Shown here piece after piece: positions 3,064-17,855 of a stretch of 20,000 nt of DNA; the stretch's first letter is position 1; the number at the start of each line of letters is the position of its first letter. The notes beneath the pieces were generated by a model, which was not told where the DNA came from, made no database searches, and was given only the letters and a program-made list of their open reading frames with translations. Both the position numbers and the translations under genes were made by a program. The DNA is from an uncultured virus (IMG/VR IMGVR_UViG_3300035698_015449) (lineage: Duplodnaviria > Heunggongvirae > Uroviricota > Caudoviricetes), in IMG/VR virus record IMGVR_UViG_3300035698_015449; one strand, 5' to 3'.

Positions 3064-4150
3064 ATTTTCTCCTTAAATAAAAATCGTTCTTATCATTATA
3101 CATCCAACAAAACGCTTTGCAAATCTGTTTCTCCCCTCCAAGAGTTCTTAGATTATAGATATATCCTGTTTTTGTTTTTTGTCCCGTTACCGACCAAACA
3201 AACTGGTTTATGCTTGTCAAGTCAGTCAAGAAATCTTTACTAGCTGAAGTAAGAGATAGCCAAGGATATCCATTCTTCTTTAAACCAACCGTTCCATCCC
3301 CATCAATAAGTCCCCTGAAAAATGAACTTAAAAACTCATCAGGAACACATCCATTATACCTCAATATCTTCGTCTTACGCTTTACTACTCCTAACTTTTT
3401 TAAATCTTCTGCAATCTTTCGGTTATGAACGGTTAAACGTATCATATCTTTAGCGTTTGAAAATCCAACTTTAGTTCTTTTATGCGAACAGTCTATCTTT
3501 TGAACAGGATGCGTTTTAGATGCGCCTATAAGATCCCCTATCTTTTCAAGTATATATCCGTCTTCTTCTGTTAGTTGTATTTCAAATCCATTATAGTCTT
3601 TGATAATATTACCATCTGTCATTATCAGACCAAGAACGTATGCTTTTTCGTGACTATTAATTTTCTCAAAAAATGATTCATCGTAATGAGTTTGTATCTT
3701 TGGTTCTCTTCGTTCAATTCCATATTTATCTAGGATTTGATATACGGTTTCCTTCCTCTTGTATCCTATTGAATCAACTATCTGCTTTCCTGTTCTACCT
3801 TTTTCATAAAGTTGTATTACTTTTTGTTCTAATTGATCTGACCGCTTACTATTCCATGCTACTCGTTTCGCTTGCTTTACTTTGTATTTCTTCCTTATGC
3901 GGCAAAGGCCATAGTAATTCACGCCCGTTTGTTCTGAGACTTTGCATAAAGAAAGCCCCTTTGTATACGAGATATGGCACAGCATTTGATAATACCGCTC
4001 TCTTACCGCTTGCCAATTGTTTTCCTGAATCACTCTCCGTATTACTCGCTCCGTTAAATCCGTTTGGCGTTCTATCTCCTTCATTTCCTTTTTTTGGAAG
4101 AACAATTTGCGGATCTTCTTTTGTAATTGTTTCGGTATCGGTTGTTTCAT
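3035..4150 (-). CDS. Free-standing LAGLIDADG homing endonuclease with N-terminal HTH-like repeats (HEG1)
   Basis: Two motifs, AYVLGLIMTDG and FFRGLIDGDG; C-terminal LRRKY; GGGAGG RBS. Confidence 0.9.
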   Translation of the reverse strand: MKQPIPKQLQKKIRKLFFQKKEMKEIERQTDLTERVIRRVIQENNWQAVRERYYQMLCHISYTKGLSLCKVSEQTGVNYYGLCRIRKKYKVKQAKRVAWNSKRSDQLEQKVIQLYEKGRTGKQIVDSIGYKRKETVYQILDKYGIERREPKIQTHYDESFFEKINSHEKAYVLGLIMTDGNIIKDYNGFEIQLTEEDGYILEKIGDLIGASKTHPVQKIDCSHKRTKVGFSNAKDMIRLTVHNRKIAEDLKKLGVVKRKTKILRYNGCVPDEFLSSFFRGLIDGDGTVGLKKNGYPWLSLTSASKDFLTDLTSINQFVWSVTGQKTKTGYIYNLRTLGGEKQICKAFCWMYNDKNDFYLRRKYEKVQSKIY

Positions 4151-4619
4151 TTTCGGCCTCCCATATTTTATGCTGCTGCTTATGGGATACTTCTGTAAGA
4201 TACTGCGAATCTCCTTCTAATTTTATGATTTTATTTTTTAGTTCATTATTACGATTACCTATCATATACCCCACCAATACAGAAAAAATACATGTAATAA
4301 AAACAGATATGATTTTTATTTTTATTTCACTCCATATTACATCATCCATGTGAAGTTTTTTGTTATCTAGATTGCATTGTTGAATTTCTATATTGTCTCC
4401 CTCTATACTCCCATGATTCGCATACGTTTGAGCATTCTCACTTACACTTTCAGCGCCATATGACACAGCAGTAGATAAATCTTTTTCTCGATCAATAAAT
4501 GGTTCGGTAGGGTAATCAATAAATTTTACGAAAAGGAATTTTAATGGGTTGTTGAACCTTGTCCCAAATTTATCTTTAGGATAACTAATATATTTCATCA
4601 AGAACGGCTTAATCTTCAT
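3849..4619 (-). CDS. Putative membrane-anchored hypothetical protein; last ~100 codons overlap HEG1 in another frame
   Basis: ATG 4619 with GGAG RBS overlaps the end of dnaE piece 2; hydrophobic segment IISVFITCIFSVLVGYMIG; fills the otherwise empty 4150-4609 gap. Confidence 0.5.
   Translation of the reverse strand: MKIKPFLMKYISYPKDKFGTRFNNPLKFLFVKFIDYPTEPFIDREKDLSTAVSYGAESVSENAQTYANHGSIEGDNIEIQQCNLDNKKLHMDDVIWSEIKIKIISVFITCIFSVLVGYMIGNRNNELKNKIIKLEGDSQYLTEVSHKQQHKIWEAENETTDTETITKEDPQIVLPKKGNEGDRTPNGFNGASNTESDSGKQLASGKRAVLSNAVPYLVYKGAFFMQSLRTNGRELLWPLPHKEEIQSKASETSSME
4159..4217 (-). promoter_or_regulatory. SigmaH-like promoter plus RBS-occluding hairpin for HEG1
   Basis: GAAGGA-N18-GAAGTA; stem TCCCATA (4187-4181) / TATGGGA (4165-4159) overlaps GGGAGG. 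Confidence 0.75.
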
Positions 4620-4956
4620 ACAAAATCTCCAATTCTTCATGCACAATGTCCTGCAAAGTATGTGCTTCCCCGTCAGAACAAATAAACTTATGATCCATTG
4701 TGCATTTTATCACAACACCATTATCAAGTTGAACTTCAAATAGCTCTCTCTCGCCAACTTCAAAAACATCTACCACGACATCTTCTACGATTTCCCCATC
4801 TTTAAATGACTTAAGAATTATCTCAGGTGTTTCAACTTCCTCACCCGCTCCAAATTCCTTCCATCCTTGATAATTAAAGAACCATTTCTCTAAGTCTTCT
4901 AATCTATAGACTTTCCCATCCTTTTCGTTTAGGACTTCGGTATCTCCAGAGAGACA
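4609..4956 (-). mobile_element. Split intein 2, N-terminal half (IntN2)
   Basis: Block A CLSGDTEV and block B CTMDHKF, acidic composition, followed by a stop codon. Confidence 0.93.
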
Positions 4957-6300
4957 TTTGTTGAATCCATACCCACCGAAGTATTCGATCTGTTCAAATA
5001 TCGCTTTTGCAGTTCTTTCGTCAATATCACATTCGGCCTTACAACCCTCAATGAACAGAGTGTCAAGCTTTTCTTTCTTGATCAACTCAGGTTTCTTCTT
5101 ACCCACAACCTTTCTCAACCAGTCTGCCTGACCTAGAGTAAATCCTGCGAGCTTCTGTACAACCTTCATGATGTTCTCTTGGAAAACCATGATCCCGTAA
5201 GTCTCATCCAAAACCTCTCCCATCTTAGGATGCAAATATTCGATTTTCTTACGGCCATGCTTGTAGTCACTGTAAAGGTCGTGAACTCCTGCACCTAATG
5301 GGCCGGGACGATACAAAGCATTACATACAACCAAATCATTGAACGTATCAACATGGATGTTCTTTAACAATTTAGAGATGCCATGAGCTTCAAACTGGAA
5401 TATACCCCTATTGTCCATATTTTTGTATTTACCATTAAATAAATCAAATACCTTAGGATCATCAGGCTCAAGTACATCAACGTCTATATACGTCCCGTAA
5501 CGGCTCTTAATCATCTGAACAGTATCCTCTATTACCGTCAGAGTCTTCAAAGCCAACATATCGAACTTGAGCAAACCAAGATCATCAACCTCTTCCATGA
5601 CAAACTGAGAGCAGATAGCGCCCTTAGACTCCCTCAAAGGAATGTGGTTTACAACAGGCTCTTTACAAATAATGATGCCAGCAGGATGCACTCCCGCAGA
5701 TGATACAGTGTTCTCAACATGTCTTGTCGTATCGAGTAACTTAGGGTTCTTTAACATCTCTCTTCTGAATGACTCATCCTCTTTAAGTGCTTGTTCAATG
5801 GTCATGCCGGGACTATTGGGGATTTGTTTGGCAATGAAGTCCGCCATATCCAAACTCCTTTTTGTCATCTCAACTTTTTTATCAGGGTTACGCTTCTTAG
5901 CTGCCTGATAAGTCTCCCAATCATTACCAATATCCAACGCTTTAGCCGCATATCTAACCGCAGCCCTTGCTTTGAATTTGTTGTACGTCCCAATTTTGCA
6001 ACAATACCCCTCTCCATACTTACGAATGATGTAATCAAAGATCTCATCTCTACGATAGTAATCAAAGTCAATATCTACATCAGGGGGACTTACACGCTCA
6101 GGGTTGATGAATCTTTCAAAAAGTAAACCGTACTTAATTGGGTCAAGTTTCGTAATACCTAGAACATACAAACACAAACTGCCTGCTCCAGAATTATGAA
6201 CTGACAACCCATCTATATTGTATGCGCTCAAATCCTTAACGGTAAGATCATGAACTTTTCCTTCATACTTAGTCTTTTTGATGCTTTTTATTTTAGCCAT
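4609..6300 (-). CDS. dnaE: DNA polymerase III alpha, piece 2 of 3: IntC1 (36 aa) + catalytic palm/thumb/fingers + IntN2 (115 aa)
   Basis: ...GLSVHN|SGAGSLCLYVLGIT, LLFERFINPERVSPPDVDIDF (catalytic Asp residues), HPAGIII, LLKFDML, GIFQFE, LYRPGP, ETYGIMVFQE, GYGFNK|CLSGDTEV...KCTMDHKF. Confidence 0.97.
   Translation of the reverse strand: MAKIKSIKKTKYEGKVHDLTVKDLSAYNIDGLSVHNSGAGSLCLYVLGITKLDPIKYGLLFERFINPERVSPPDVDIDFDYYRRDEIFDYIIRKYGEGYCCKIGTYNKFKARAAVRYAAKALDIGNDWETYQAAKKRNPDKKVEMTKRSLDMADFIAKQIPNSPGMTIEQALKEDESFRREMLKNPKLLDTTRHVENTVSSAGVHPAGIIICKEPVVNHIPLRESKGAICSQFVMEEVDDLGLLKFDMLALKTLTVIEDTVQMIKSRYGTYIDVDVLEPDDPKVFDLFNGKYKNMDNRGIFQFEAHGISKLLKNIHVDTFNDLVVCNALYRPGPLGAGVHDLYSDYKHGRKKIEYLHPKMGEVLDETYGIMVFQENIMKVVQKLAGFTLGQADWLRKVVGKKKPELIKKEKLDTLFIEGCKAECDIDERTAKAIFEQIEYFGGYGFNKCLSGDTEVLNEKDGKVYRLEDLEKWFFNYQGWKEFGAGEEVETPEIILKSFKDGEIVEDVVVDVFEVGERELFEVQLDNGVVIKCTMDHKFICSDGEAHTLQDIVHEELEILYED
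6193..6300 (-). mobile_element. Split intein 1, C-terminal half (IntC1)
   Basis: MAKIKSIKKTKYEGKVHDLTVKD..AYNIDGLSVHN followed by Ser; canonical His-Asn end. Confidence 0.95.
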
Positions 6301-7232
6301 GCCTTAATCCTCTTCTTTATTGCGTCAGTTTTTTCATTATTGTAAAATGTTATTTCAGAATAATATCTTTTATAAAATGGTTTAAGATAAGTTTCTCTTT
6401 TTACAAATATACCTAAATCAAACAAATCCTGAAATCCATATACAACATACATTATACCAAACTCCTTTCTTGCTGCTTTAAATTTTTCATGGAAGTTGTT
6501 ATACTCCTTCGACCCTTTAATTTCAACGATTCTTTTTTTATCATTGCTATAGGTAACTATGAAATCAGGATAATACTGCCGTTTTTTACCTTTATCGTCT
6601 TTATAAGCAATACTCCCCTTATATCTTTCAATCTTTTTTATACTCTTAGAGTCCCAACAAAAACATAGAAAATACAATTCCCAACTACTATCAAATCTGA
6701 TACCTCGTATTGTACCGCTTATAAAAGATTTTGAACATCTTTTTTCTGCATACATCGGATCGGATTTCATTAATTTCAGTTGGGCATCTCTTTGCTTTTT
6801 TAAAACCTCCGGTCTATTTTGCGCTATCAATTGAGCTTTTGAATTACTATCCTTCCATTTGTCAGTATTTGTAGCAAACTTTAGGGAACATTTTTTACAG
6901 ATAGGTTTGGTTCCACAAATCTTCCTTTTTTGCATAGCTAAAATCTGCATAACACTATCTTTGCCACATTCTTGACATTTAAATTTTACTTTCTTTTTAG
7001 TTTTTAAAGAATTTATACAAGGTTGTACTAATTTATAATCCCAATATTCATCATTTAGCTTATCCTGCAACTCAACCGGATAGTAATCAACTCCGTATTT
7101 TCCGCCCCTACTATATTTTTTGTAGCATTTCGGACAAATTGGCTCTGAAGTTTTTTCCCTTCTTCTTTTTAAACATCCTCTTTGAATTTTAAAATCATTA
7201 CCACAATCCTGACATTTCATTCTAACACTCAT
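6288..7232 (-). CDS. Free-standing putative homing endonuclease: CxxC zinc-binding repeats plus TnsA-N-like PD-(D/E)xK nuclease (HEG2)
   Basis: CQDC, CPKC, CQEC, CKKC; C-terminal FDSSWE...YYPDFIV...IVEIKG; sits between the halves of split intein 1. Confidence 0.8.
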   Translation of the reverse strand: MSVRMKCQDCGNDFKIQRGCLKRRREKTSEPICPKCYKKYSRGGKYGVDYYPVELQDKLNDEYWDYKLVQPCINSLKTKKKVKFKCQECGKDSVMQILAMQKRKICGTKPICKKCSLKFATNTDKWKDSNSKAQLIAQNRPEVLKKQRDAQLKLMKSDPMYAEKRCSKSFISGTIRGIRFDSSWELYFLCFCWDSKSIKKIERYKGSIAYKDDKGKKRQYYPDFIVTYSNDKKRIVEIKGSKEYNNFHEKFKAARKEFGIMYVVYGFQDLFDLGIFVKRETYLKPFYKRYYSEITFYNNEKTDAIKKRIKAWLK

Positions 7233-7235
7233 AAA

Positions 7236-7290
7236 ATAACCTCCTTAACTTTATTAGGTTATATTCTTGATGAATGCCAAAACCTCCTCC
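7236..7290 (-). promoter_or_regulatory. SigmaH-like promoter plus RBS-occluding hairpin for HEG2
   Basis: GGAGGA-N18-GAATAT; stem ATAACCT (7262-7256) / AGGTTAT (7242-7236) overlaps AAGGAGGT. Confidence 0.75.
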
Positions 7291-7317
7291 TTTAAACTCC
7301 AACTCGTACAACCAACC

Positions 7318-7611
7318 TCAAACGACTCCCTCTCTAATATCAAATATTTCATCATCAGTAGTTAGTTTTCCTGCTTCAACCCATATAAGGTCTCCTTTGC
7401 GATCAATATGAATCTTATGATCGCTTGTGCATGAAAACCGCCTTCCGTCTTCTAACTCTATTTCTATTAATTCCTCATCTACATCATATTCTAAAACATT
7501 TAAAACATCATGATACTTTCCATCATAAGATAAAACTTTATCATTTATACAAACATCTTTAATATTTTTTATTCCGTCCTTACACTCAACCTTAGACTCT
7601 GGTGTAAAACA
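7318..7611 (-). mobile_element. Split intein 1, N-terminal half (IntN1)
   Basis: Block A CFTPESKV, block B CTSDHKI, WVEAGKLTTDD, then a stop codon. Confidence 0.95.
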
Positions 7612-8715
7612 CCCCCTACCAACACCAACTCGAATTCCTTGCTGATTAGCGTAGTTAATAATATCCCAAAGCGTAAGGAAGTATTTGACAAACCCACAAC
7701 CAATAATCAAGCTCATCTCCATCTTGATACGTTCTCTGTATTCAGGTTTATCTAGAAACCCCTTCAATTGCATCCCGTCTTTCACTAAAGCCTTAAGATA
7801 CATGTCACCGCTAGTAAACCCTTGTGGAACCTTGAAAGTAGGCAACAGGTCTTCAGATGGTGTTAATATCGCTCCCTTCTCTACCTTTTCTGCAATCTCA
7901 ACCGTATTGCTCATCATTTCGGGAGCGCTCTTGTACAACTCTTGCATCTCTTCATACGGCTTAAGGTAGAATTCATTTCCGTTGAAAGTGAAACGTTTAG
8001 GATTTTTTATATGGTTATGGGTTTGCATGGCAAGCATGACATCATGATACGGCGCATCAGTTCGGTTGGCATAATGAGCGTCATTGGTACAAACGGTTTT
8101 GATGTCGAGCTTCTTAGCCAACATATACATTTGCTTGGCTAGTTTTCGTTCACGGTCTTCTTGATCCTTGGATGCCTCAAAATATTTGTGCATCATGATC
8201 TCAATGTAAAAATCGTCCCCGAATAACTCTTTATGCTCATTTGCAAAAGTAATAGCCCCGCTCTCATCGCCCTGCCATAGCTTTGCAGGGAACTCTCCTA
8301 TGCAACAAGCGCTTAGACAGATCAAGCCCTCATGATACTTCTTAAGTAATTCAAAATCAATTCTAGGCTTTCTATACTTACCTTCAATCTCGGCAATGGT
8401 TGAAAGCTGCATTAGGTTCTTAACCCCGGTTCGGTTCTTAGCTAAAAGCACCAAATGGTATCTTGGATCTTTGGGATCTCTAGATTTGTGGTCAGGACAA
8501 GTGTAAACTTCATTGCCCAATATTGGCTTAACGTCTTTAGCTAAACAAGTCTTCTGAAAGTTATACCATCCCCCGCAAGTTCCGTGATCTGTTATTGCTA
8601 AGGAATGAGAACCATTAGCTATACAGGCATCTACCATTTCCGTTGGTGATGAAAGCCCGTCTAATGCGCTGTAGTAACTATGATTGTGTAAATTAACGAA
8701 TCTGTCTTCTGTCAT
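7318..8715 (-). CDS. dnaE: DNA polymerase III alpha, piece 1 of 3: PHP domain plus IntN1 (97 aa)
   Basis: FVNLHNHSYYSALDG, AITDHG, PILGNE, YHLVLLAKN, KPRID, LSAC, TNDAHY, ...GIRVGVGRG|CFTPESKV...SCTSDHKI. Confidence 0.97.
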   Translation of the reverse strand: MTEDRFVNLHNHSYYSALDGLSSPTEMVDACIANGSHSLAITDHGTCGGWYNFQKTCLAKDVKPILGNEVYTCPDHKSRDPKDPRYHLVLLAKNRTGVKNLMQLSTIAEIEGKYRKPRIDFELLKKYHEGLICLSACCIGEFPAKLWQGDESGAITFANEHKELFGDDFYIEIMMHKYFEASKDQEDRERKLAKQMYMLAKKLDIKTVCTNDAHYANRTDAPYHDVMLAMQTHNHIKNPKRFTFNGNEFYLKPYEEMQELYKSAPEMMSNTVEIAEKVEKGAILTPSEDLLPTFKVPQGFTSGDMYLKALVKDGMQLKGFLDKPEYRERIKMEMSLIIGCGFVKYFLTLWDIINYANQQGIRVGVGRGCFTPESKVECKDGIKNIKDVCINDKVLSYDGKYHDVLNVLEYDVDEELIEIELEDGRRFSCTSDHKIHIDRKGDLIWVEAGKLTTDDEIFDIREGVV

Positions 8716-9194
8716 GCGTCTCCCTGATCGAATATTTTGGTTTCATAAGACTTCACCCTTGCATATATTACCTGATGTATGAAATGCAATAGCTTATCTA
8801 CGAATTCAACCCAATTGTAACTATCGAAGTCAATATCCCTTATGACCTCATTCTCTTCAAAATTCAAACCCGACATATGTGAGTAGTGAGCAGTTTTGAC
8901 AGTAATGTTTGAACCATCAGTATATACGTAAACGGACTTGTCATATCCCTTTTTAGTCAACTTGAAAGAAAAACAGGAGACATCTCCGTTCATCTCAGGC
9001 CCTTCTATTACATGGTCAATAACACCTGATTCTACGAAACATTTGACGATAGTTGCGATCCTCGTAGCCATACGCTTTACGACTAACTGATGATCTGATG
9101 TGATTTTGTACGGGATTTGTCCAACAGCTTCTACAAAGTTTTTATGCGTCGAATCTACCCTCTCTTTGATAAATGGAATGTTAAGCATGCTCAT
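8712..9194 (-). CDS. Hypothetical protein
   Basis: 160-aa ORF with 4-nt ATGA overlaps to both neighbours. Confidence 0.8.
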   Translation of the reverse strand: MSMLNIPFIKERVDSTHKNFVEAVGQIPYKITSDHQLVVKRMATRIATIVKCFVESGVIDHVIEGPEMNGDVSCFSFKLTKKGYDKSVYVYTDGSNITVKTAHYSHMSGLNFEENEVIRDIDFDSYNWVEFVDKLLHFIHQVIYARVKSYETKIFDQGDA

Positions 9195-9805
9195 ATTTTC
9201 CCTCCGTATTTTTGGATCAACAATTTTGTCATTTCAAGGACTTGCTCTTCGGATAGAGATGTTGTGTCAATCACTTCAACAGGAATGTCAAATGTTTTGA
9301 GATAACGTGGCAATTCCTCACGATAAAGTCGAATTAACTCAACCATCGTTTCTCGCTCCTGAGTCCATCTGCATTTTCCATGTTCAGGATTTTTTTCACG
9401 CTCTGCAATGACCCTATTAATAAGCTCATTGTCGTCTCCATCAAGAAGGATCACTAAATCAATCTGCTCATCAGGATCGATAGTATGTTCCAAAAAATCG
9501 ACAGATAACCCCTGCAATAAGCATTGGTATATGTAAGTTGATGTCCACCATCTGTCGGCTATGACTGCTGACGATTTGCCTTTAACGCAATATAGATACT
9601 CATCTAATCTCGCTGCGCTAAACAACATGAATTGGACTCGTTTGTCTATGCCTGTCCATGGTTCAGTTCCCCTGCAAGCTGATCGTAACATTTTTGCTAA
9701 TGGGGTTCCGTTAGGACTTGACAAAGTGATATACCCTTTATCAGAAAGGTTGTTGATTAGGGATGTTTTCCCAGCTCCGTTTGGCCCCTCTACTACACAA
9801 AACAT
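9191..9805 (-). CDS. tmk: Thymidylate (dTMP) kinase family protein
   Basis: P-loop VEGPNGAGKTS, LFSAAR and IADRWWTSTYIYQ motifs. Confidence 0.9.
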   Translation of the reverse strand: MFCVVEGPNGAGKTSLINNLSDKGYITLSSPNGTPLAKMLRSACRGTEPWTGIDKRVQFMLFSAARLDEYLYCVKGKSSAVIADRWWTSTYIYQCLLQGLSVDFLEHTIDPDEQIDLVILLDGDDNELINRVIAEREKNPEHGKCRWTQERETMVELIRLYREELPRYLKTFDIPVEVIDTTSLSEEQVLEMTKLLIQKYGGKI

Positions 9806-9862
9806 AATTGCCCCTTAGATTTACATCGTTAATAATTTAAATTCATTGATAACTTCCTTTCT

Positions 9863-9872
9863 ATTATACAGC
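9863..9872 (-). promoter_or_regulatory. Sigma70-type -10 element (GCTGTATAAT) upstream of the tmk-dnaE run
   Basis: Identical 10-mer to 409-418, intergenic. Confidence 0.55.
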
Positions 9873-9884
9873 CAATCATGCTCC

Positions 9885-10694
9885 CTAATGATAAAGATTT
9901 TTGTACTTTTGCCTTTTACGATCCATATATATTGTGGAATCTTCATACATCCAATTTAATATCTTATAAGCATTTTTTCCGCTATAACCTATGTGTCCCG
10001 CTTTAAAGTGTTTATTTGCTATATATGGGGCATATTTATTTTTAGATTTTAATTTTATATGAAGCTCCTGTACCCAATATTGTGAAACTGGATCTAACAA
10101 ATCGTATTCTCCTGCTATACTTATTAGGCAAACATGATTTTTTGGGACAGTTACACACCCATCTCCATCAAATAATCCTCGAATGAAATGCCTATGGTAT
10201 AACTTTGGGATTAAAGTTAGTGGATGAATCTCAACTTTTTTCCCCCTGCATAATCCAAAATTAGATTTGAGGTCATTTATAAACCAAGAACCACAAATAT
10301 CTACAGACACATATTTTGGGTAGCTTTCATCACGATGGGCATGACGATATTCCCCCACTTCTCTATCACATTTTATGCAATTAAGAAATTTTTTCAAATG
10401 TAATTTATCAACCGAACTTATTTTTATATGAACAATATCTCGATCCTTTCTGATATGTCCATCTGCCCATAAAAACCCCGCCCAATAGCAGCTTTCTTCT
10501 GTAAAGGCATTAAAAAAGTCCACATTATACTCATAGTGTGGACTTCCCTTTCTAATAGAAATATTACTACGCTTAATAATCCGTTGAATTGTTGAGCGAT
10601 GAACATTAAATCTTTTCGACAATTCTCCAGTTCCTATGCCTTTTCCATATAGTTCTAATATTTTATCGCACACTTCATTTTTTATTCTTTTCAT
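9885..10694 (-). CDS. Free-standing LAGLIDADG homing endonuclease with N-terminal HTH (HEG3)
   Basis: CYWAGFLWADG and FIRGLFDGDG; start reassigned to ATG 10694 (MKRIKNEV) after GGAGG. Confidence 0.9.
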   Translation of the reverse strand: MKRIKNEVCDKILELYGKGIGTGELSKRFNVHRSTIQRIIKRSNISIRKGSPHYEYNVDFFNAFTEESCYWAGFLWADGHIRKDRDIVHIKISSVDKLHLKKFLNCIKCDREVGEYRHAHRDESYPKYVSVDICGSWFINDLKSNFGLCRGKKVEIHPLTLIPKLYHRHFIRGLFDGDGCVTVPKNHVCLISIAGEYDLLDPVSQYWVQELHIKLKSKNKYAPYIANKHFKAGHIGYSGKNAYKILNWMYEDSTIYMDRKRQKYKNLYH

Positions 10695-10695
10695 C

Positions 10696-10745
10696 TTACA
10701 TCCTCCAATACCATGTAATTCAACATTTGGAAGATGCATTCCTTT
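10696..10745 (-). promoter_or_regulatory. SigmaH-like promoter plus hairpin enclosing the RBS of HEG3
   Basis: AAAGGA-N18-GAATTA; stem TTACAT (10718-10713) / ATGTAA (10701-10696) with GGAGG in the loop. Confidence 0.7.
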
Positions 10746-11530
10746 TATTGTTTTTCAAAAATGTCTTGAATCTTTGACCTCATTTCTAAATGTGTTTTAG
10801 GTGATGGTGAAATTTTCCATTTACCCCTCATTGCTGTCCCTTTATCTGATGTTATCTCAACCAGTTCTTTAAAAGCTACAAATCCAGTTTTCCTTTCTTG
10901 TTGAACATCATTCCAATTTATTCCATGTGTACTAAAAAGCATTTCTTGCATCTCAGAGCTATTTTTATTTTGAAGTTGCTTATGACTAAATTTTGATTGT
11001 GCCAACATGGATATTGAATTTCTAAGGGCATCATTTTGTCTCCATATGAAGTAATTATTTACATCTGACTCGGGAATGTTGAAACAACGACAATCGAACA
11101 TAGGCCAATTCTCGTCCCATGTTAAAATGTTCTCATCACCGGGATAATGAGCGCCAGCGATTGACTCTTTAGAAAGAATCTTGCAAAGTTCAGCCGTAGC
11201 CATACTTGAAATGACAGAAACAATCTTCTGTACGTTGTAATCAAAGTACGAATCCGTATTTACTTTGTCGTAATCAGTAATAAGAATAGAGATCTCATCT
11301 GAGTGACGTTCCGCAAATTTTGCCCCTTGGACGTTCTCGCAAATGAACTTCATAGCCCCATTCATACTCTCATTAAAGAGTTTGTCATAAGGACGTTCAA
11401 AACGTTTACAAAAAGTCGAAAAACATTTACCGTCAACCCTAACGACAACAGGAATACGACGAACCAAACGGGTTTTAGATACCTGTTCGTAAATTTTCAT
11501 CCTGTCTCCGAGCGCATCATTTTTATTCAT
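10745..11530 (-). CDS. tRNA(His) guanylyltransferase Thg1-like protein (3'-5' polymerase family)
   Basis: VVRVDGKCFSTF, SDEISIL, QKIVS, FDCR, YFIWRQNDALRNS and GINWND motifs. Confidence 0.93.
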   Translation of the reverse strand: MNKNDALGDRMKIYEQVSKTRLVRRIPVVVRVDGKCFSTFCKRFERPYDKLFNESMNGAMKFICENVQGAKFAERHSDEISILITDYDKVNTDSYFDYNVQKIVSVISSMATAELCKILSKESIAGAHYPGDENILTWDENWPMFDCRCFNIPESDVNNYFIWRQNDALRNSISMLAQSKFSHKQLQNKNSSEMQEMLFSTHGINWNDVQQERKTGFVAFKELVEITSDKGTAMRGKWKISPSPKTHLEMRSKIQDIFEKQ

Positions 11531-11531
11531 T

Positions 11532-12341
11532 TTATCTCCAATACTTCTCTTTTAACTGATATTTTCCATTATAATTTTGTTTCCTTTTACCGTTCGTCCT
11601 ATCGGTAAACTGCCTGCCACAACCTGAACATAAATATTTCTGCTCTCCTCTTATTTTTCCATTTTTACTTATTTCGTATCCTTTACAAAAGGCACATGGA
11701 GGTAAAGCGGGAATAGAACTAAATAGTCTATACTTAGGATCTCTCCATATATCAGCCTTTCTTTGCAAAGGGAAGCCTAGATCTATAGCTTTTAAAAACT
11801 TCCTACAATCATCGGTTCTTATCAGTCGAATTGTTGGAAAAGAGTCGTCTAAATACATTTTGAAATCAACTTTGTATAAACGATTTAGTGACTCTACTAA
11901 AAACTCAACCTCATTTATTGAAAAGCCTTGTGTCGCCAACTTAACATCAAATCTTAACTGATTTAGTTTGTCCTTTGGAGGGATTACACATCCATCATCT
12001 GCCATCCAAACCTGAACCGTCTCGTTGTTGAGTTTCAAATCATTAGGTACTTCTTTTATCCCATTACAATACCACTTATCGTGACATTCTGTAAATATTG
12101 CACTACATCTACTTCTCAAACATATCTGATAATAAGTTTTACCCGTCCTTTTATCAAATGTCTTCTTTTTATAGACCCCTTTTGGCGTGATATACTCTTT
12201 TAATAATTTAGCACTCCACACTAAATAATCTTCATCAGTTATAACTCTGTTTATCTTCAAACTAGCATTATAACTTAACTTTCTACGCTCTAAGTATCCA
12301 TCACCTAACATTAATCCGTTTAATAAATTTTCTATCTTCAT
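11532..12341 (-). CDS. Free-standing LAGLIDADG endonuclease with C-terminal zinc ribbon (HEG4)
   Basis: GLMLGDGYL, WMADDG, LATQGFS; C-terminal CAFC..KNG...QKYLCSGCGRQF. Confidence 0.88.
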   Translation of the reverse strand: MKIENLLNGLMLGDGYLERRKLSYNASLKINRVITDEDYLVWSAKLLKEYITPKGVYKKKTFDKRTGKTYYQICLRSRCSAIFTECHDKWYCNGIKEVPNDLKLNNETVQVWMADDGCVIPPKDKLNQLRFDVKLATQGFSINEVEFLVESLNRLYKVDFKMYLDDSFPTIRLIRTDDCRKFLKAIDLGFPLQRKADIWRDPKYRLFSSIPALPPCAFCKGYEISKNGKIRGEQKYLCSGCGRQFTDRTNGKRKQNYNGKYQLKEKYWR

Positions 12342-12403
12342 GTTTCATACTCCTTATTTTATTGTATGAAACGTATTTCTGCACAACCGTAACGCATCCC
12401 TTT
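12342..12403 (-). promoter_or_regulatory. SigmaH-like promoter plus hairpin enclosing the RBS of HEG4
   Basis: AAAGGG-N18-GAAATA; 9-bp stem GTTTCATAC (12372-12364) / GTATGAAAC (12350-12342) closing over AAGGAG and ending next to the ATG. Confidence 0.75.
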
Positions 12404-12411
12404 AAATTTCC

Positions 12412-12834
12412 TTAAACCTTGTCTGCCACCAAATCCGCATCTGACGGTTCTCTAATTAACAACTTGGGGAGCTTCTGATTTGTTGGATTCGGCTTTGGAG
12501 TAACCCTACGTCTATTCACTTTCTTCGCCTTCTTTTGTTGATTCTGCTTCTTCTGTTGATTTGGCTTCGCCTTTTGTTCTGGTGCGGCAACAGGGTCATG
12601 CGCCAAATATGACTTAATTTGCAATATCGAAATTGCATGGTCAGGCGTCAAATAAATGTACCCGCACTCAAACGCATCTTGCATGAATTGTTCAAAGTTT
12701 TCTCTGTACGACACGCTATCGCTGAAAACCGTATTTCTCTCGCTGAATGGTGCCAACGCAGATTGCAACTCGGTTACGAATATACCACCTTCTTCTTGAA
12801 CATCTTCATATATAACTTTAACATATTTCCTCAT
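12412..12834 (-). CDS. Hypothetical protein with basic Q/K-rich tail
   Basis: 140-aa ORF, AAGGAG RBS. Confidence 0.75.
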   Translation of the reverse strand: MRKYVKVIYEDVQEEGGIFVTELQSALAPFSERNTVFSDSVSYRENFEQFMQDAFECGYIYLTPDHAISILQIKSYLAHDPVAAPEQKAKPNQQKKQNQQKKAKKVNRRRVTPKPNPTNQKLPKLLIREPSDADLVADKV

Positions 12835-12905
12835 TGATACTCCTTTGTATAATATAGCAACATTACATTATAACCTAAAACCGTTGAAATACAAGGACTT
12901 AAATT

Positions 12906-13577
12906 ATGGCGAACATACATATCATAGAGGACTTTAATTCCTTTGACCGCATAAAAGAAGAAATGGAACTTCATCACATAGAAAAATTCCGTTCATATGA
13001 ACATTTTGCTACATGGAAAAATGAATGCAGAGCGTGTCCCATTGGTAAAGTTTATGATCAAGTTATTCAAAGTAGCGGAAATACTGTAAATCCGAAAGTT
13101 GTAGTCGTGGGAGAGGCCCCGGGAGCAGACGAGTTGGATGCAGGTAAACCATTCGTCGGCAAATGCGGTAAACTGTTACGAGCTACATTAGAGAAAGCAG
13201 GGTTTAATGACGAGAATTCACTAATCACAAATACGATTCCCTGTAGACCCGAAAACAACAAATTTCCCAAAGATGATACCATTGTGAAAAACTGCAAAAG
13301 CATGTGGCTTAAATCAGAACTTCAAATCCTTAATCCCGATTACTTACTCTTGATCGGCAGTCAGTCATTGAAATTCCTTTTAAACATACGAGGCATTACC
13401 AAAGCTCACGGTATATGGAACAAACGTAAACTTAATGGGAAAGTAATTCAAATCATGCCTACGTTTCATCCATCATACATCTTAAGGGTTCAATACTCTC
13501 CTGATAAAAAATACATCGTACAGGAGTTTGAGAATGACATTATGAGAGTTGGGAAAACCGCAGGATTCATTCAGTGA
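12906..13577 (+). CDS. Uracil-DNA glycosylase family 4 (Fe-S type)
   Basis: CRACP, VGEAPGADE, PFVGKCG, TNTIPCRP, FHPSY; four Cys consistent with a 4Fe-4S cluster; the only convincing plus-strand gene. Confidence 0.93.
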   Translation: MANIHIIEDFNSFDRIKEEMELHHIEKFRSYEHFATWKNECRACPIGKVYDQVIQSSGNTVNPKVVVVGEAPGADELDAGKPFVGKCGKLLRATLEKAGFNDENSLITNTIPCRPENNKFPKDDTIVKNCKSMWLKSELQILNPDYLLLIGSQSLKFLLNIRGITKAHGIWNKRKLNGKVIQIMPTFHPSYILRVQYSPDKKYIVQEFENDIMRVGKTAGFIQ

Positions 13578-14035
13578 TGGATAATCTTGATAGCATCTAG
13601 TCTGAACTCATGCGGTTGCCTTCTCCAATATTTTCTTATCTTCCCAATGTTCTTCAGTTCCTCAAAAATCATATCTAACGGAGATGATAAAAAATCGGCT
13701 TCAGTGATATCAATATGATTTGCCGTTTTGGACAGAACTTGGGCCAATAACGCTTCTGATCGTTTTTCAATTTCCTTTTCTAGTCGAGGCTCAACATGCC
13801 GCTGACTAATTTTCGGATAGTAACCTTCAGCCATACGAGATTTATTTGAATACTTTTTATTCTTTTTAGGTTTACCTTCAGTTACCTTTACATAACACCA
13901 CAATACAGATACGAGTATACCTAATCCAATCAGCAAATATGGCATCAACGAAACAATCCATACAAGAAAGCCCATCACGGTCAATCCTGCAATGACCGAT
14001 AATACAAACTTAAATATTTCCCAAAAAGGTGGCAT
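13571..14035 (-). CDS. Hypothetical membrane protein (two N-terminal TM segments)
   Basis: Hydrophobic first ~48 aa; GGGG RBS; start coupled to the upstream stop. Confidence 0.7.
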   Translation of the reverse strand: MPPFWEIFKFVLSVIAGLTVMGFLVWIVSLMPYLLIGLGILVSVLWCYVKVTEGKPKKNKKYSNKSRMAEGYYPKISQRHVEPRLEKEIEKRSEALLAQVLSKTANHIDITEADFLSSPLDMIFEELKNIGKIRKYWRRQPHEFRLDAIKIIHH

Positions 14036-14529
14036 TACATCCCCTTGTTAAACTGCTTGGCATACTCATAAAGAACAATGGACGCCGCTACAGCTACGTT
14101 CAAGCTATGGGGCTGACCGTATAAAGGTATTTCAATAACCTCATCTAATTCATTCAACAATTCCTGCTTCATTCCCTTGCATTCATTACCTACAATAAGA
14201 AAAATAGGCTTGAACGGAAACTCATAAGCATGTATGTTGCAAGAGCTTGTGGACTGCTCAATGCCCACGACATGATACCCGTTCTCTTTATATCTTCTCA
14301 TTACAGGAAGGATGGATCTATGGTGTATTATTTCAAGAGAACAATCTCTGGAGATATGTGGGTTTACCCGATTCTGACCCGATGTAATAAAACGACTTGC
14401 TCCCATACAACTAGCGGTACGAGCAATCATAGATACATTGTCGTTGTTCTTCATTGGTGGACAAGCAACAACTATATCAAAACCGTAACTACCTAGTGGC
14501 TCTCTTTTTACCTGTTCAAAGTGTCCCAT
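14035..14529 (-). CDS. SpoU/TrmH-family RNA methyltransferase (SPOUT)
   Basis: NVSMIARTA, IVGNECKG, IEIPLYGQPHSLNVAVAASI; start probably ATG 14529 (the ORF track extends it to 14583). Confidence 0.9.
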   Translation of the reverse strand: MGHFEQVKREPLGSYGFDIVVACPPMKNNDNVSMIARTASCMGASRFITSGQNRVNPHISRDCSLEIIHHRSILPVMRRYKENGYHVVGIEQSTSSCNIHAYEFPFKPIFLIVGNECKGMKQELLNELDEVIEIPLYGQPHSLNVAVAASIVLYEYAKQFNKGM

Positions 14530-14755
14530 TGAGCGACCTGACTGCAAAAATCTCAAGAGGAAGAACCTGTCCCGCTTCCCCATTTTTGCTTTTTAACACA
14601 GACACATTCCCACCATTATCAATTCGTCCAACTACATGTGCCTCTGCGATTTCTTTTTTTGTATATCTATATGCTTGGGTATTTGTACCAGACCCCGAAT
14701 CAAAACCGTCCGGGAATCCTGCGTCTCTTTCGTCCATTAACAATACTTTAATCAT
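14516..14755 (-). CDS. Hypothetical protein
   Basis: 79 aa, AAGGAGG RBS, ATGA coupling. Confidence 0.65.
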   Translation of the reverse strand: MIKVLLMDERDAGFPDGFDSGSGTNTQAYRYTKKEIAEAHVVGRIDNGGNVSVLKSKNGEAGQVLPLEIFAVRSLNGTL

Positions 14756-14952
14756 AGTGCCTCCTTAGTTGCTCCATCAATACTTCTGCCTATATCTACT
14801 ACACCATCTGCTCCACAATGATCGCATTTATACCAATCGATATCATCAACACCAAAATAATTAACCTTGCCGCAGCAATAACATAAATCCGATTTGGTCT
14901 GTTTGAAAAAATCAGAAACAACCCCTCTCAAAAATGTAAAAGACAATTGCAT
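14752..14952 (-). CDS. Small zinc-ribbon hypothetical protein
   Basis: ATG 14952 after AGGAGG; CYCC and CDHC motifs. Confidence 0.6.
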   Translation of the reverse strand: MQLSFTFLRGVVSDFFKQTKSDLCYCCGKVNYFGVDDIDWYKCDHCGADGVVDIGRSIDGATKEAL

Positions 14953-14960
14953 GACGCCTC

Positions 14961-15347
14961 CTAATATGTAAATGATTTCATGTGTATATGATTGCATGTC
15001 TGACTAATACTCAATGTCGTCCGACAATCCATTTCAGGCAATTCGAGAATAAATCCGCCCACATCCTTTATCGCTTGAATCTCTTTACCAACTCCTGCCG
15101 ATATTGATCCATTAGGTAATGCCCTGAATGCAACACCATCACAAGTCTTAACGACAGATACGAAGTAATCCATGATTTGGGTGCCGGTCTTTCCATCCCG
15201 TTTCATCTTCGCAACTTTACCTTTGTAATACGTTGAATTGGGGTTTACAACACGCACCTTAAGCTTGTCGAGTGTTGCTACATCCTCCCACTCTTGTTCC
15301 GTTCCATATAAAGCCATACAGTGAGCATAGTATATTCTTATTTTCAT
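14961..15347 (-). CDS. Nucleoside 2-deoxyribosyltransferase-like (NDT fold) protein
   Basis: IYYAH...VVNP...CDGVAF...SAGVGKEI pattern typical of NDT-like Rossmannoid proteins. Confidence 0.55.
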   Translation of the reverse strand: MKIRIYYAHCMALYGTEQEWEDVATLDKLKVRVVNPNSTYYKGKVAKMKRDGKTGTQIMDYFVSVVKTCDGVAFRALPNGSISAGVGKEIQAIKDVGGFILELPEMDCRTTLSISQTCNHIHMKSFTY

Positions 15348-15589
15348 TCGAAATCCCTAATTACGTCATCAGGAAACAAAAAATACAGAATCCAAGACAC
15401 CAAATGAAATAGAATTCCGATCCCGATCATCAATACTACCAATGAAGAGAAAAAGTATAAGATAAACAGACACAGCGTATTAAGCCATACCCATCCGATA
15501 GCTGCCGCAATTGGAGTAACTAATCCCATAGTTATTCCGAAGATTGCTAGCAACCAAAGTGATTCAACATGTCCCTGTCTTCCATCCAT
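15344..15589 (-). CDS. Small membrane protein
   Basis: 81 aa, largely hydrophobic, GAGGAG RBS. Confidence 0.65.
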   Translation of the reverse strand: MDGRQGHVESLWLLAIFGITMGLVTPIAAAIGWVWLNTLCLFILYFFSSLVVLMIGIGILFHLVSWILYFLFPDDVIRDFE

Positions 15590-15743
15590 AATTCTCCTCT
15601 ATCATTCCCATAGTTAAAACCCAAGGCCAATAGCCATCAGGACATTTCAATACGAACCACATAGTGACGTAAAAAGGCAGAAAAATGACATCCGTAATAG
15701 CCAAAACTATCAGAATGCCGATTGCTAACAATATATTGATCAT
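15564..15743 (-). CDS. Small membrane protein
   Basis: Likely start ATG 15743 (MINILLAIG); hydrophobic. Confidence 0.55.
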   Translation of the reverse strand: MINILLAIGILIVLAITDVIFLPFYVTMWFVLKCPDGYWPWVLTMGMIEENYGWKTGTC

Positions 15744-15754
15744 TGTAGTTCTTT

Positions 15755-16081
15755 CTATATTTTGGGGAGGTTGTCCCACCATGTTACACCAGAGTCAGGA
15801 ACAGAAGTGTAACCCCAATATGTGTTCCCCTCTTCTGTTGGGACTGCCGCTACCAACCATCCAATAGTATGTTCACTTAATAAGTCAGGTACTTCTTTAT
15901 TCTGATCGGACATAGCACATGCTCGACAACGTAAATGTTGGTAATCGAGGAAAGTGTTGTATTCTCTGTATAGTCTGACACCTGTTGCGCCACAATCTTT
16001 ACAGAAATAACCTTCGGGAGATTCCATTTCTGAGTAAGAGAATGGAGTACAAATGTTTCCCCATGCTAATTCGGTCATCAT
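15755..16081 (-). CDS. Hypothetical protein with two CxxC motifs
   Basis: CKDC and CRAC, Trp-rich C-terminus; AAAGGA RBS. Confidence 0.7.
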   Translation of the reverse strand: MMTELAWGNICTPFSYSEMESPEGYFCKDCGATGVRLYREYNTFLDYQHLRCRACAMSDQNKEVPDLLSEHTIGWLVAAVPTEEGNTYWGYTSVPDSGVTWWDNLPKI

Positions 16082-16113
16082 TCCTTTCTATGCTTTACAA
16101 CTATTTTATAAAG

Positions 16114-16476
16114 TGGTGGAAGCGGGGGGGTTCGAACCCCCGTGTTGTACGAGAATTAACATAATCTCATTCACATGCTTAGTTGATTGATTAAGGATCT
16201 AACAACAAATCCTTCTCAGTTCTTGTCCTGAGTTGCAAACTGTCTTGCCAGCTTGTCAGGTTTCTAAAGGCTTTCACCACTTGCCACCTTGTAAATGACG
16301 TTACTAGGGGTTACTAAGACTATCTCACCCTGTTCTCGGGTTGCTTTATTTAAGCAGCCATTGCTAAACGTGTTTCGCCGTTTATTGCGTTTTCATGGAA
16401 TATTAAAGAGGCCAACCATGATCCTCTGCATGCGACTATATCTATTCATTCGCCAATCGATACCAAATTCGCTCCC
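16114..16476 (-). ncRNA. ssrA: tmRNA (363 nt), tag peptide (A)GETRLAMAA
   Basis: Acceptor stem GGGAGCG/CGCTTCC with G3:U, discriminator A and encoded CCA; T arm GGGGG-TTCGAAC-CCCCC; pk1 stems AGAGG/CCTCT and TCATGG/CCATGA; ATAAAC then GGC GAA ACA CGT TTA GCA ATG GCT GCT TAA (16379-16350). Confidence 0.95.
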
Positions 16477-17216
16477 TTTTTTATTTTACTGGGTTTTTCA
16501 GCCCATTCCTTTAGTTTATCCAATTTGTATTTATAGCAAACCGGCCATTTAAAATTAAGCAATCCTTCTGCAATTTTTGACTTATTGGTAACATTACTTT
16601 TTATATATATGCTATGATCTTTGGTAATAGTGGCAGTTAATCCGTAATTCCCCAATTTCTTAATTAATATTTCCAAAGAGGATTTGTCAAATCCCATCGT
16701 GCATATCTTGAAACTTCCCCGTTCTATATTCCCATCGCCCAACAACCAGTGCGACAAAACCTCATCGTCTATTTCCAATTCATCAGGAACATGCTTTTTA
16801 CCATTAATATACCATTTTTTTCTTAGTCCCTTAAAATTTGAACGAGTCGCCAGAAGAGTTCTATCATAATAGTTACCAGTTCTTTTTTCAAGCCTGTGAT
16901 CATCCCACAAATTAACGTGAATCCCCAATTTACCAAATTTACTTTTTAAAAAATCGGCGTATTCTCTATATTTGGTGGTATGTGCGTACTTCCCTCCTAA
17001 TCCAATAGACCCATCTCCCAATAATTCTCCAATAATCCAATTTGGGGTTTTTTCACATTGTTTAGCCTTAATCCTATTCCTTTTTAGATTTAAAGATTCA
17101 GATTTTTTTTGTATAGATTTCCAAGTTCTTTCAGGAAATAATTTAAGAACATCACTCTTTTTGAATTCTCCCCACACCTTACATAAAAGATCAGTTTGAC
17201 GCCCATCCCATTTCAT
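16446..17216 (-). CDS. Free-standing LAGLIDADG endonuclease with N-terminal Myb/HTH-like region (HEG5); overlaps the tmRNA 5' end
   Basis: WIIGELLGDGSI, HWLLGDG, ICTMGF; last 31 nt lie inside the tmRNA. Confidence 0.88.
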   Translation of the reverse strand: MKWDGRQTDLLCKVWGEFKKSDVLKLFPERTWKSIQKKSESLNLKRNRIKAKQCEKTPNWIIGELLGDGSIGLGGKYAHTTKYREYADFLKSKFGKLGIHVNLWDDHRLEKRTGNYYDRTLLATRSNFKGLRKKWYINGKKHVPDELEIDDEVLSHWLLGDGNIERGSFKICTMGFDKSSLEILIKKLGNYGLTATITKDHSIYIKSNVTNKSKIAEGLLNFKWPVCYKYKLDKLKEWAEKPSKIKKGANLVSIGE

Positions 17217-17218
17217 AC

Positions 17219-17268
17219 TACCCCCATTTTTGGAGATAACATTCTTTCAAAAACGTTTATTATCCTTC
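17219..17268 (-). promoter_or_regulatory. SigmaH-like promoter plus RBS-occluding hairpin for HEG5
   Basis: GAAGGA-N18-GAATGT; stem TATCTCCA-AAAA-TGGGGGTA (two G:U pairs) burying the GGGGG RBS. Confidence 0.72.
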
Positions 17269-17351: not shown

Positions 17352-17819
17352 TTACCCCTTACTGTTTCCGAAAAACTTCTTTACGTAAGTGCTTAAACCA
17401 AAGACCCTTACGCCACAATAATATGTTCTCGCCAATTTAAAATCTGATCGCTTTAACACATCATAAAACATTCTGTCTGTGAATTTCCTAACTCTGTATA
17501 GGCTAATCCCTGAATCTTCATGCGTTTTACACAAATACTGATACACGTAGTCATGTAGGAGTGAAGCGTTAAGCGTATCAGTGTAACGATATTCGCTCGT
17601 CAATATCTTAGGCATCCATATTTTAGGTTCAATCGTCTTCCCTTGCCATACGTTGCCCGAACATCCATCCCAAGCATATCCTTTGCCCAAGAGAATTTCA
17701 TCTTTAGTGATTATGCCTCGTTCAGTAACCAATCTTTTAACGTGCTTCAAGAGAGGGGAACAATCATAAGCATAACTGAAATCCTCTCTAAGAATGTATT
17801 TGTAAACTCCTTTTTTCAT
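17352..17819 (-). CDS. DUF1353-like protein
   Basis: GYAWDGCSG...ASLLHDYVYQ...TDRMFYDVL...YYCGVRVFG pattern. Confidence 0.7.
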   Translation of the reverse strand: MKKGVYKYILREDFSYAYDCSPLLKHVKRLVTERGIITKDEILLGKGYAWDGCSGNVWQGKTIEPKIWMPKILTSEYRYTDTLNASLLHDYVYQYLCKTHEDSGISLYRVRKFTDRMFYDVLKRSDFKLARTYYCGVRVFGLSTYVKKFFGNSKG

Positions 17820-17825
17820 ACAGTG

Positions 17826-17855
17826 TAGTTCAAAAAGAGAAAAATAGATTCCTGC
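17826..17855 (-). promoter_or_regulatory. Sixth sigmaH-like promoter, probably giving a leaderless mRNA
   Basis: GCAGGA-N18-GAACTA; the A of the ATG is the 7th nt after the hexamer; no SD sequence. Confidence 0.65.

Follow-up and report, generated by a model that had tools for sequence, protein, structure and literature searches.

In this study, the control of five free-standing endonuclease genes was investigated in a stretch of 20,000 nucleotides (nt; the window) of an uncultured virus of the Caudoviricetes, which forms the last 20 kb (54312-74311) of the 74,311-bp virus record IMGVR_UViG_3300035698_015449 (the contig). We observed that all five genes are preceded by the same two-box element, AGG and GAA separated by 19 nt (AGG-N19-GAA), which is almost certainly a real promoter, and that a stem is predicted over part of the ribosome-binding region in each of the five leaders. 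Taken as a whole, the arrangement is probably a late-expression switch, composed of a sigmaH-type promoter and a hairpin at the ribosome site and served by a SigH-like reader. Positions are those of the window unless the contig or a relative is named.

The element before the endonuclease genes

The five genes and their promoters are given below, the start points of transcription (+1) being predicted from the leaderless genes described in the next section.

3035..4150, minus strand: endonuclease 1, free-standing LAGLIDADG, 371 amino acids (aa), between split-intein pieces of dnaE and overlapping the start of dnaE-C
6288..7232, minus strand: endonuclease 2, free-standing TnsA-like PD-(D/E)xK, 314 aa, between split-intein pieces of dnaE
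9885..10694, minus strand: endonuclease 3, free-standing HTH-LAGLIDADG, 269 aa from the ATG led by a Shine-Dalgarno sequence; the longest open reading frame (ORF) starts at 10739
11532..12341, minus strand: endonuclease 4, free-standing LAGLIDADG_2, 269 aa
16446..17216, minus strand: endonuclease 5, free-standing LAGLIDADG_2, 256 aa, its 3' end overlapping the tmRNA gene (16114-16476)
4188..4215, minus strand: promoter 1, AGG 4215-4213, 19-nt spacer, GAAGTA 4193-4188; predicted +1 at 4181
7261..7288, minus strand: promoter 2, AGG 7288-7286, GAATAT 7266-7261; predicted +1 at 7254
10716..10743, minus strand: promoter 3, AGG 10743-10741, directly after the Thg1 stop, GAATTA 10721-10716; predicted +1 at 10709
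12374..12401, minus strand: promoter 4, AGG 12401-12399, GAAATA 12379-12374; predicted +1 at 12367
17239..17266, minus strand: promoter 5, AGG 17266-17264, GAATGT 17244-17239; predicted +1 at 17232

The five sites, their 19-nt spacers and their -10 hexamers were all found as the initial annotation had described them, and its remark that the spacers are unrelated agrees with the 2-9 of 19 positions that are identical among them. It had also assigned the genes to different nuclease families. The nuclease identity of all five downstream ORFs is backed by Pfam and the TnsA-like protein indeed stands apart, but the statement is too strong because the other four are LAGLIDADG proteins, and two nuclease pairs are detectably related (23% identity over 272 aa and 33% over 91 aa).

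With reference to position, AGG-N19-GAA is the sole pair of trimers at a fixed gap common to the five leaders, and when five other genes were drawn at random 20,000 times, 11 draws shared any pair of this kind. With its AGG 40-80 nt before the start codon, the element stands before 5/5 window endonucleases and 1/87 other contig genes, and other spacers from 14 to 24 at the same placement give 0-1 of the five. The enrichment expected by the initial annotation before homing endonuclease genes was also observed among five held-out contig nucleases, as three of them carry the N19 form (Fisher p 3e-4 against the same 1/87) and four carry it when N18 is also allowed (against 2/87 other genes, Fisher p 3e-5), three of the motif matches having been seen already before the genes were classed. 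One member of this set, contig 43847-44026, has no family match; we counted it in because we judged it to be the opening piece of a broken DUF4379 nuclease. The fifth held-out nuclease is preceded by a 52-aa ORF with an N18 site 6 nt before that ORF's ATG.

The comparison with shuffled sequence that had been proposed gave a divided answer, since the position before endonuclease genes is non-random, as above, and the bare motif is not above chance over the window (18 matches against 13.4 +/- 3.6, with 24 of 200 shuffles reaching 18). On the minus strand of the contig, the bare pattern occurs 43 times at spacer 19 and 52 times at spacer 17. A generic sigma-70 scan was uninformative (62 against 61.1 +/- 9.2). 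Additionally, an iterated weight matrix drifted, absorbing GTATAAT and AGA variants, and for this reason all counts in this study use plain patterns with spacer controls.

Likeness to SigH promoters and the predicted start of transcription

The resemblance to sigmaH promoters claimed in the initial annotation was borne out by comparison with the SigH promoters of C. difficile mapped by transcription start sites (TSS), which consist of AGG, 18 or 19 nt and GAA(T/A/G) in the nine rows of Table 3 of PMC7438776, counted by eye in a text version that has lost the underlining of the start sites. Four of the five window hexamers occur verbatim among those promoters, and the elements found here display the AGG -35 box, the 18-19 nt spacing and the GAA(T/A) -10 box of the SigH type. 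SigH-type promoters start transcription about 6-9 nt after the -10 hexamer; here, judged from gene positions, a peak at 6-7 nt is obtained for predicted leaderless genes. Over six genomes, the distance from hexamer to ATG peaks at 6 nt, with 12 cases for N19 and 7 for N18 compared with 2.2 for control spacers, and the peak recurs at 6-7 nt in 77 further metagenome loci. Counted by protein family, the 6-nt peak comprises 18 families compared with 3.8 for control spacers. If these genes are read as leaderless, +1 is therefore the seventh base after the hexamer, and transcription would start about 7 nt after GAA in the endonuclease leaders as well. A sixth site in the window belongs to this leaderless kind:

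17826..17853, minus strand: AGG-N19-GAACTA, followed after 6 nt by the ATG of a DUF1353 gene (17352-17819) that has no Shine-Dalgarno sequence; predicted leaderless start

Predicted hairpins over the ribosome-binding region

The leaders were further compared by their opening cost, that is, the computed kcal/mol needed to unpair positions -16 to -1 of a 70-nt leader, which replaced an earlier measure of Shine-Dalgarno accessibility (p 0.026) that had picked loop bases in genes 2 and 4. The predicted hairpins are as follows, with the cost in read-through RNA set against that in a transcript from +1.

4159..4187, minus strand: hairpin 1, core of 7 bp in which part of the Shine-Dalgarno sequence of endonuclease 1 is paired; 6.7 against 2.8 kcal/mol
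7236..7262, minus strand: hairpin 2, core of 7 bp in which the 3' half of the Shine-Dalgarno sequence is paired; 9.3 against 2.0 kcal/mol
10697..10738, minus strand: hairpin 3, 16 pairs including 2 G-U, 5' arm within the promoter spacer; z -3.9, 11.8 against 0.1 kcal/mol
12342..12372, minus strand: hairpin 4, 9 bp, mainly pairing the stretch from Shine-Dalgarno to ATG; 6.3 against 0.5 kcal/mol
17219..17238, minus strand: hairpin 5, 8 bp including 2 G-U, covering the Shine-Dalgarno sequence; 8.4 against 0.2 kcal/mol

Thus the computed cost in the five leaders falls from 6.3-11.8 kcal/mol on read-through RNA to 0.1-2.8 from the predicted +1. Among the ten contig nucleases, the median cost is 9.7 kcal/mol, compared with 4.0 in 65 other genes with a Shine-Dalgarno sequence (p 4e-5), and 9/10 reach at least 6 kcal/mol compared with 14/65; all five relatives, with 1-9 nucleases apiece, showed the contrast again (p 0.0004-0.04). 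Non-nuclease genes that have the promoter are mostly unblocked (median 4.9, with at least 6 kcal/mol in 11/31). Between 3 of 7 and 12 of 12 bases of the 5' arm lie upstream of the predicted +1 in the five leaders, and +1 is past the release point in 9/9 contig cases, by no more than 3 nt in genes 4 and 5. These ribosome-site hairpins had escaped the initial annotation, and as predicted structures they may supply the mechanism of the switch.

A SigH-like sigma factor on the same contig

A phage sigma-factor gene, the search for which had been suggested beforehand, was found on the same contig. Contig 31500-32393 encodes a 297-aa SigH-like sigma factor whose best five NCBIfam matches are all of SigH type (E 1e-24 to 5e-20), whose sole significant PDB match is sigma-H 3mzy, and whose identity to a SigH passing two SigH cut-offs is 33%. 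The recognition motifs of regions 2.4 and 4.2, named after general sigma-70 anatomy, are retained in an alignment with three SigH sequences and are invariant or nearly so in 24 homologues. With family scores below the SigH cut-offs, the protein is SigH-like and not filed as SigH. Its gene is present in 5/5 related viral contigs, and 338 homologues were obtained by protein search and 134 metagenome stretches were confirmed, with no full-length relative in 50,697 GenBank phage records, where 0/9 matches cover 80% of the protein. Our structure model has a predicted local distance difference test score (pLDDT) of 62 and a predicted template-modelling score (pTM) of 0.33, and an Atlas model compared with sigma-70 clusters gave TM 0.48-0.65. 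We consider it likely that this phage protein reads the AGG-N18/19-GAA class.

The sigma-like genes of the contig match SigH and sigma-70 families, and a second one, at contig 50214-51116, is also conserved in 5/5 relatives; it shows 24% identity to SigH over 175 aa, has no SigH family match, and its match ends before region 4.2. The leader of the SigH-like gene itself (contig 32393-32440; L002:13393-13440, minus strand) and those of the homologous loci L064-L143 display a predicted ribosome-site hairpin in 71 of 74 distinct homologues, with a median opening cost of 10.4 kcal/mol where neighbouring genes have 2.1-4.0 and with arms that differ in sequence. Such a hairpin might act as a conserved brake that holds back the turn to late transcription.

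Candidate promoter classes in related genomes

Five related viral contigs (G001-G005) were read whole, and a wider search for alignable viral contigs returned the same five; rows L068, L101 and L121 were excluded, being the same contigs as G002, G003 and G004. Because the contigs are related, the counts are not independent events, and because genes on the contig, the relatives and the metagenome loci were called with our own scripts, some start codons may be wrong. Before genes, spacer 19 was found 29 times in G004, compared with 3-10 at other spacers among 575 genes, 14 times in G001, compared with 2-6 among 234 genes, and 22 times in 77 metagenome loci, compared with 1-8 among 734. The peak is also clear in G005 and weak in G003.

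The enrichment that had been expected before structural and lysis genes was found in G004, which is 476 kb long and 98% complete. Its morphogenesis block holds terminase, portal, protease, capsid, tube-like, tape-measure and endolysin genes, and the motif is present at 19 of the 46 genes of this block that have an upstream gap, whereas the small-ORF and replication blocks have it at 15 of 142 (p 1e-5); other spacers give 0-3 within the morphogenesis block, and the block preceding it has the motif at 13 of 50 genes. The sites precede endolysin, tube-like, tail, protease and terminase genes, and the immediate upstream neighbour of the capsid gene has a strong site 211 nt before it. Again, orthologues of the tube-like gene keep the motif in 25 of 38 cases (other spacers up to 10), those of a PAS gene in 19 of 20, and those of two small genes in 25 of 26 and 19 of 24. 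The timing of the AGG-N18/19-GAA class is likely to be late.

A second class, marked by TGTATAAT, was recognized at replication genes. Such elements precede 34/46 clamp, 45/59 clamp-loader and 25/33 topA orthologues, where the AGG-N18/19-GAA motif is nearly absent (1/46, 1/59 and 3/33, respectively). The class has no -35 consensus (157 sites), and the second sigma-like protein is a candidate for its reader. Its members in the window are:

3095..3102, minus strand: TGTATAAT element 37 nt ahead of dnaE-C, within the 3' end of the endonuclease 1 gene
9870-9863, 2342-2335 and 416-409, minus strand, and 12846-12853, plus strand: further sites of the TGTATAAT class

The initial annotation had set the endonuclease promoters apart from TATAAT-type elements before the replication genes and tmRNA. 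For the replication genes this agrees with the TGTATAAT sites; the element before tmRNA is ambiguous and not assignable to the TATAAT class. It lies inside endonuclease 5 (16477-16530, minus strand) and, read by eye, consists of AGG, 18 nt and GTAAAA, ending 7 nt before the mature 5' end. In the relatives G005 and G002, endonucleases also adjoin tmRNA or tRNA-like genes.

With regard to the endonucleases of relatives, nine nucleases were used as seeds (7/9 with the strict motif), a biased set because most seeds had been noticed for having the motif. Among 19 others found blind by homology, the strict motif lies 30-80 nt upstream in five, a placement found for 45 of 693 other genes (p 0.008). 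Of those five, three are leaderless, and three more of the 19 have the motif 143-194 nt upstream. The blind set leaves out fragments of up to 108 aa (L023:16289, L112:14484, L119:347), one likely false match (L064:3281), two intein-bearing clamp loaders, weak long matches and HNH genes conserved as orthologues, and genes crossing the borders of the 20-kb loci were not called. The arrangement of promoter and endonuclease is frequent, not universal. As dnaE is a single ORF, uninterrupted by these endonucleases, in G001, G002 and G004, and as orthologous neighbours have no motif, promoter and hairpin likely arrive with the endonuclease insert or arise afterwards.

Proposed switch and alternative explanations

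According to the proposed mechanism, element and hairpin together would act as a late-expression switch on each of the five endonuclease genes. Early or middle read-through messenger RNA (mRNA) from the upstream replication genes would include the 5' arm, so that the ribosome site of the nuclease would be hidden and the nuclease left untranslated. Late in infection, the promoter would be read by the SigH-like sigma factor encoded on the contig, and a transcript starting about 7 nt past the GAA hexamer, lacking all or most of the 5' arm, would be translated. The short RNA would be made when phage DNA is abundant and homing is able to work. Throughout the clade, virion, packaging and lysis genes would be transcribed from promoters of this class, with replication genes using the TGTATAAT class, and dnaE-C may be kept expressed by the TGTATAAT element that lies 37 nt before it.

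A number of observations weigh against this switch. Any shortening of a leader lowers its structure (other genes go from 4.0 to 1.1-2.9 kcal/mol), and across 17 genes the end of the arm shows no correlation with +1 (rho 0.10), for which reasons the case leans on how costly the read-through leaders are to open. Within the stretches folded, hairpins 1 and 4 do not exceed shuffled sequence in stability (z -0.3 and -1.6). When three more nuclease-like ORFs that were left out of the held-out set are included, its N19 rate becomes 3/8. Most of the blind-picked endonucleases of relatives (14/19) lack a strict motif 30-80 nt upstream, none of eight nuclease-like matches in metagenome loci has the motif by our own start calls, and G002 displays no clear peak at spacer 19 (6 compared with 0-6). 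In G004, 8/46 genes of the morphogenesis block carry the TGTATAAT class, and non-structural genes too are preceded by the motif. Moreover, the SigH-like protein scores 72-87 bits where the curated SigH cut-offs (TIGR02859, NF006145, NF006148) stand at 208-414, and a second sigma-like gene exists on the contig.

Considering the reader, the promoters and hairpins may be real while the main reader is the host's own SigH, the host being a Bacillota cell in transition phase; the phage protein would then be redundant or would act on genes of the host. The host may have its own SigH, the motif closely matches the TSS-mapped C. difficile promoters in both spacings, the contig carries spoVS, a SigH-controlled gene according to PMC7438776, and some phage sporulation-like sigma factors are dispensable (10.1101/2021.11.12.468384). 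We nevertheless regard host reading as unlikely, given that the SigH-like gene belongs to the core of the clade, with invariant motifs in regions 2.4 and 4.2 across the viral contigs and metagenome stretches counted above, and that virion genes dependent on a host transition-phase sigma would presumably restrict lytic growth. The second sigma-like protein, with its conservation and weak SigH likeness, could in principle read AGG-N19-GAA instead, but the loss of the SigH match before region 4.2 makes this very unlikely, and a class without a -35 consensus such as TGTATAAT would suit it better. If the phage SigH-like protein is the reader, its programme could be middle or condition-dependent rather than late, as PAS-domain and small unknown genes are also led by the motif, the major capsid, portal and tape-measure ORFs of G004 have no site of their own (the portal has TGTATAAT), and 6/42 replication-block genes carry the motif. 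This is rather improbable in view of the density of sites in the morphogenesis block and the block before it, the sites at endolysin, terminase and protease genes, and the strong site upstream of the capsid neighbour.

As to the element and the stems themselves, a chance pattern, or the relic of a displaced Shine-Dalgarno sequence in A-rich intergenic DNA, would accord with the absence of bare enrichment over the window, the occurrence of AGG in the Shine-Dalgarno consensus and the choice of the pattern after the fact; it is largely refuted by the rarity of any such shared motif in random gene sets, and by the held-out genes, independent genomes, orthologue footprints and leaderless peak, all of which favour spacers of 18-19. 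Least probable of all is that the hairpins belong to antisense RNA from the opposite strand. Six of 20 leaders fold slightly better on that strand, but 14 of 20 fold better on the mRNA strand (by a mean of 2.3 kcal/mol, with 27 compared with 14 G-U pairs), there is no facing AGG-N18/19-GAA site near any of the five starts, and the leaders share no sequence and therefore form no portable cassette.

Comparison with known systems

Control of homing endonucleases by a late promoter and a hairpin has been described with T4-type promoters (PMC2988022, PMC2677866), so the logic of the switch is itself already known. For T4 I-TevI and Aeh1 mobE, a late promoter and a ribosome-site hairpin delay endonuclease translation (PMC2988022). 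Like the genes studied here, the T-even endonucleases (I-TevI, I-TevII, I-TevIII and segB; Aeh1 mobE) are embedded in earlier transcription units and have the hairpin on read-through RNA, with the promoter so placed that its transcript lacks the 5' arm (PMC2988022); the window endonucleases sit within longer transcription units and share their strand with the flanking genes. The systems differ in promoter, which is a two-box AGG-N18/19-GAA here and a -10-only late box in T4, in sigma factor, a candidate SigH homologue here and gp55 in T4, and in nucleases, which are LAGLIDADG and PD-(D/E)xK in the window, as far as sequence tells, and GIY-YIG or HNH in T-even phages (PMC2988022). The five leaders have AGG-N19-GAA, not the T4-type late promoter TATAAATA, as their common element. 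The arrangement works like a T4-type switch but is not a member of that type by its promoter.

The fractured genes with split inteins (PMC2677866) resemble the present case in that dnaE is broken at split inteins by free-standing endonucleases, in having leader hairpins (15/16 there) and in endonuclease 3' ends that overlap the next gene piece, and for them the delay logic was predicted (PMC2677866, Dassa et al. 2009). Ten of those hairpins carry the Aeh1/T4 late element TATAAATA, and two sequence motifs are shared there, whereas only the sigmaH-type boxes are common here; also, unlike those fractured genes, one dnaE is here broken twice.

Compared with Bacillota SigH, the phage sigma keeps the motifs of regions 2.4 and 4.2. 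Its identity to SigH is about 30%, it is extended at the N-terminus, carries an insertion within region 4 and falls below all SigH cut-offs; its predicted regulon consists of phage late genes, whereas SigH governs entry into sporulation. As in phage sigma cascades (SPO1 gp28/gp34, T4 gp55, the sporulation-like sigmas of Bacillota phages), a large phage here has two sigma-like genes together with two candidate promoter classes; in the available parts of 10.1101/2021.11.12.468384 and PMC7824862, no phage late regulon is connected with a SigH homologue. Literature searches in a library with few subscription papers and no supplements yielded neither this combination nor a SigH-like phage late sigma.

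If the switch is right, control by late promoter and hairpin arose again on a sigmaH-type promoter, and a sporulation-entry sigma has been repurposed for phage morphogenesis. Using nothing but sequence, this study pairs a candidate phage sigma with a promoter consensus, a predicted start-site position and a regulon, for a clade that is widespread and still without cultured members; the sigma-promoter pairing is directly testable in Bacillus or in vitro. More tentatively, and with somewhat less than even confidence, we suggest that the clade runs its late programme with a captured, hairpin-held SigH homologue, into which unrelated endonucleases have repeatedly been plugged by way of promoter and hairpin, of leaderless starts, or of a promoter with a small repressor-like ORF. 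In that case, the T4 delay switch would represent a convergent solution not tied to one type of promoter, and endonuclease leaders could serve to read out late promoters and their sigma in phages that resist cultivation.

Gene setting and further observations

In the window, dnaE is divided into three pieces bearing split-intein halves, and dTMP kinase, Thg1, UDG, SpoU, tmRNA and the five free-standing nucleases are also present; in 2353-8715, dnaE consists of three genes with two split inteins and a free-standing endonuclease in each break. IMPDH (contig 21391-22937) is likewise split at an intein, with no nuclease between the pieces. Outside the window, the contig carries ligase, RecJ, clamp, clamp-loader, topA, recA, primase, spoVS and tail-tube-like genes together with the two sigma-like genes. 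A two-domain SpoVS protein (contig 49338-50060) and a multi-PAS protein (contig 38079-39299) are conserved in the clade and, together with the SigH likeness, hint at a Bacillota host; a host search in 185,579 prokaryote genomes gave three weak partial matches to the SigH-like protein. A 265-aa ORF with a hydrophobic stretch (3849-4646, minus strand) spans promoter 1 and overlaps endonuclease 1 by 300 nt in another frame; it has no Pfam or PHROG match and no tblastn match in the fetched loci.

Some endonucleases follow an ORF of 50-60 aa that gives the impression of a small repressor, with no family match (contig 26600-27467, plus strand; L024:5511-6777; L029:3827-4972; L087:8480-9523; L096:11786-12847), and in three cases a sigmaH-type site precedes this ORF. 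At contig 10681-10740 (plus strand), short tandem repeats of about 21 nt overlap an AGG-N18-GAA site upstream of a plus-strand operon. Contig 15917-15950 holds two overlapping divergent AGG-N19-GAATGA sites for genes on opposite strands, and a similar divergent pair flanks the endolysin of the relative G004 (L053:2432-2516).

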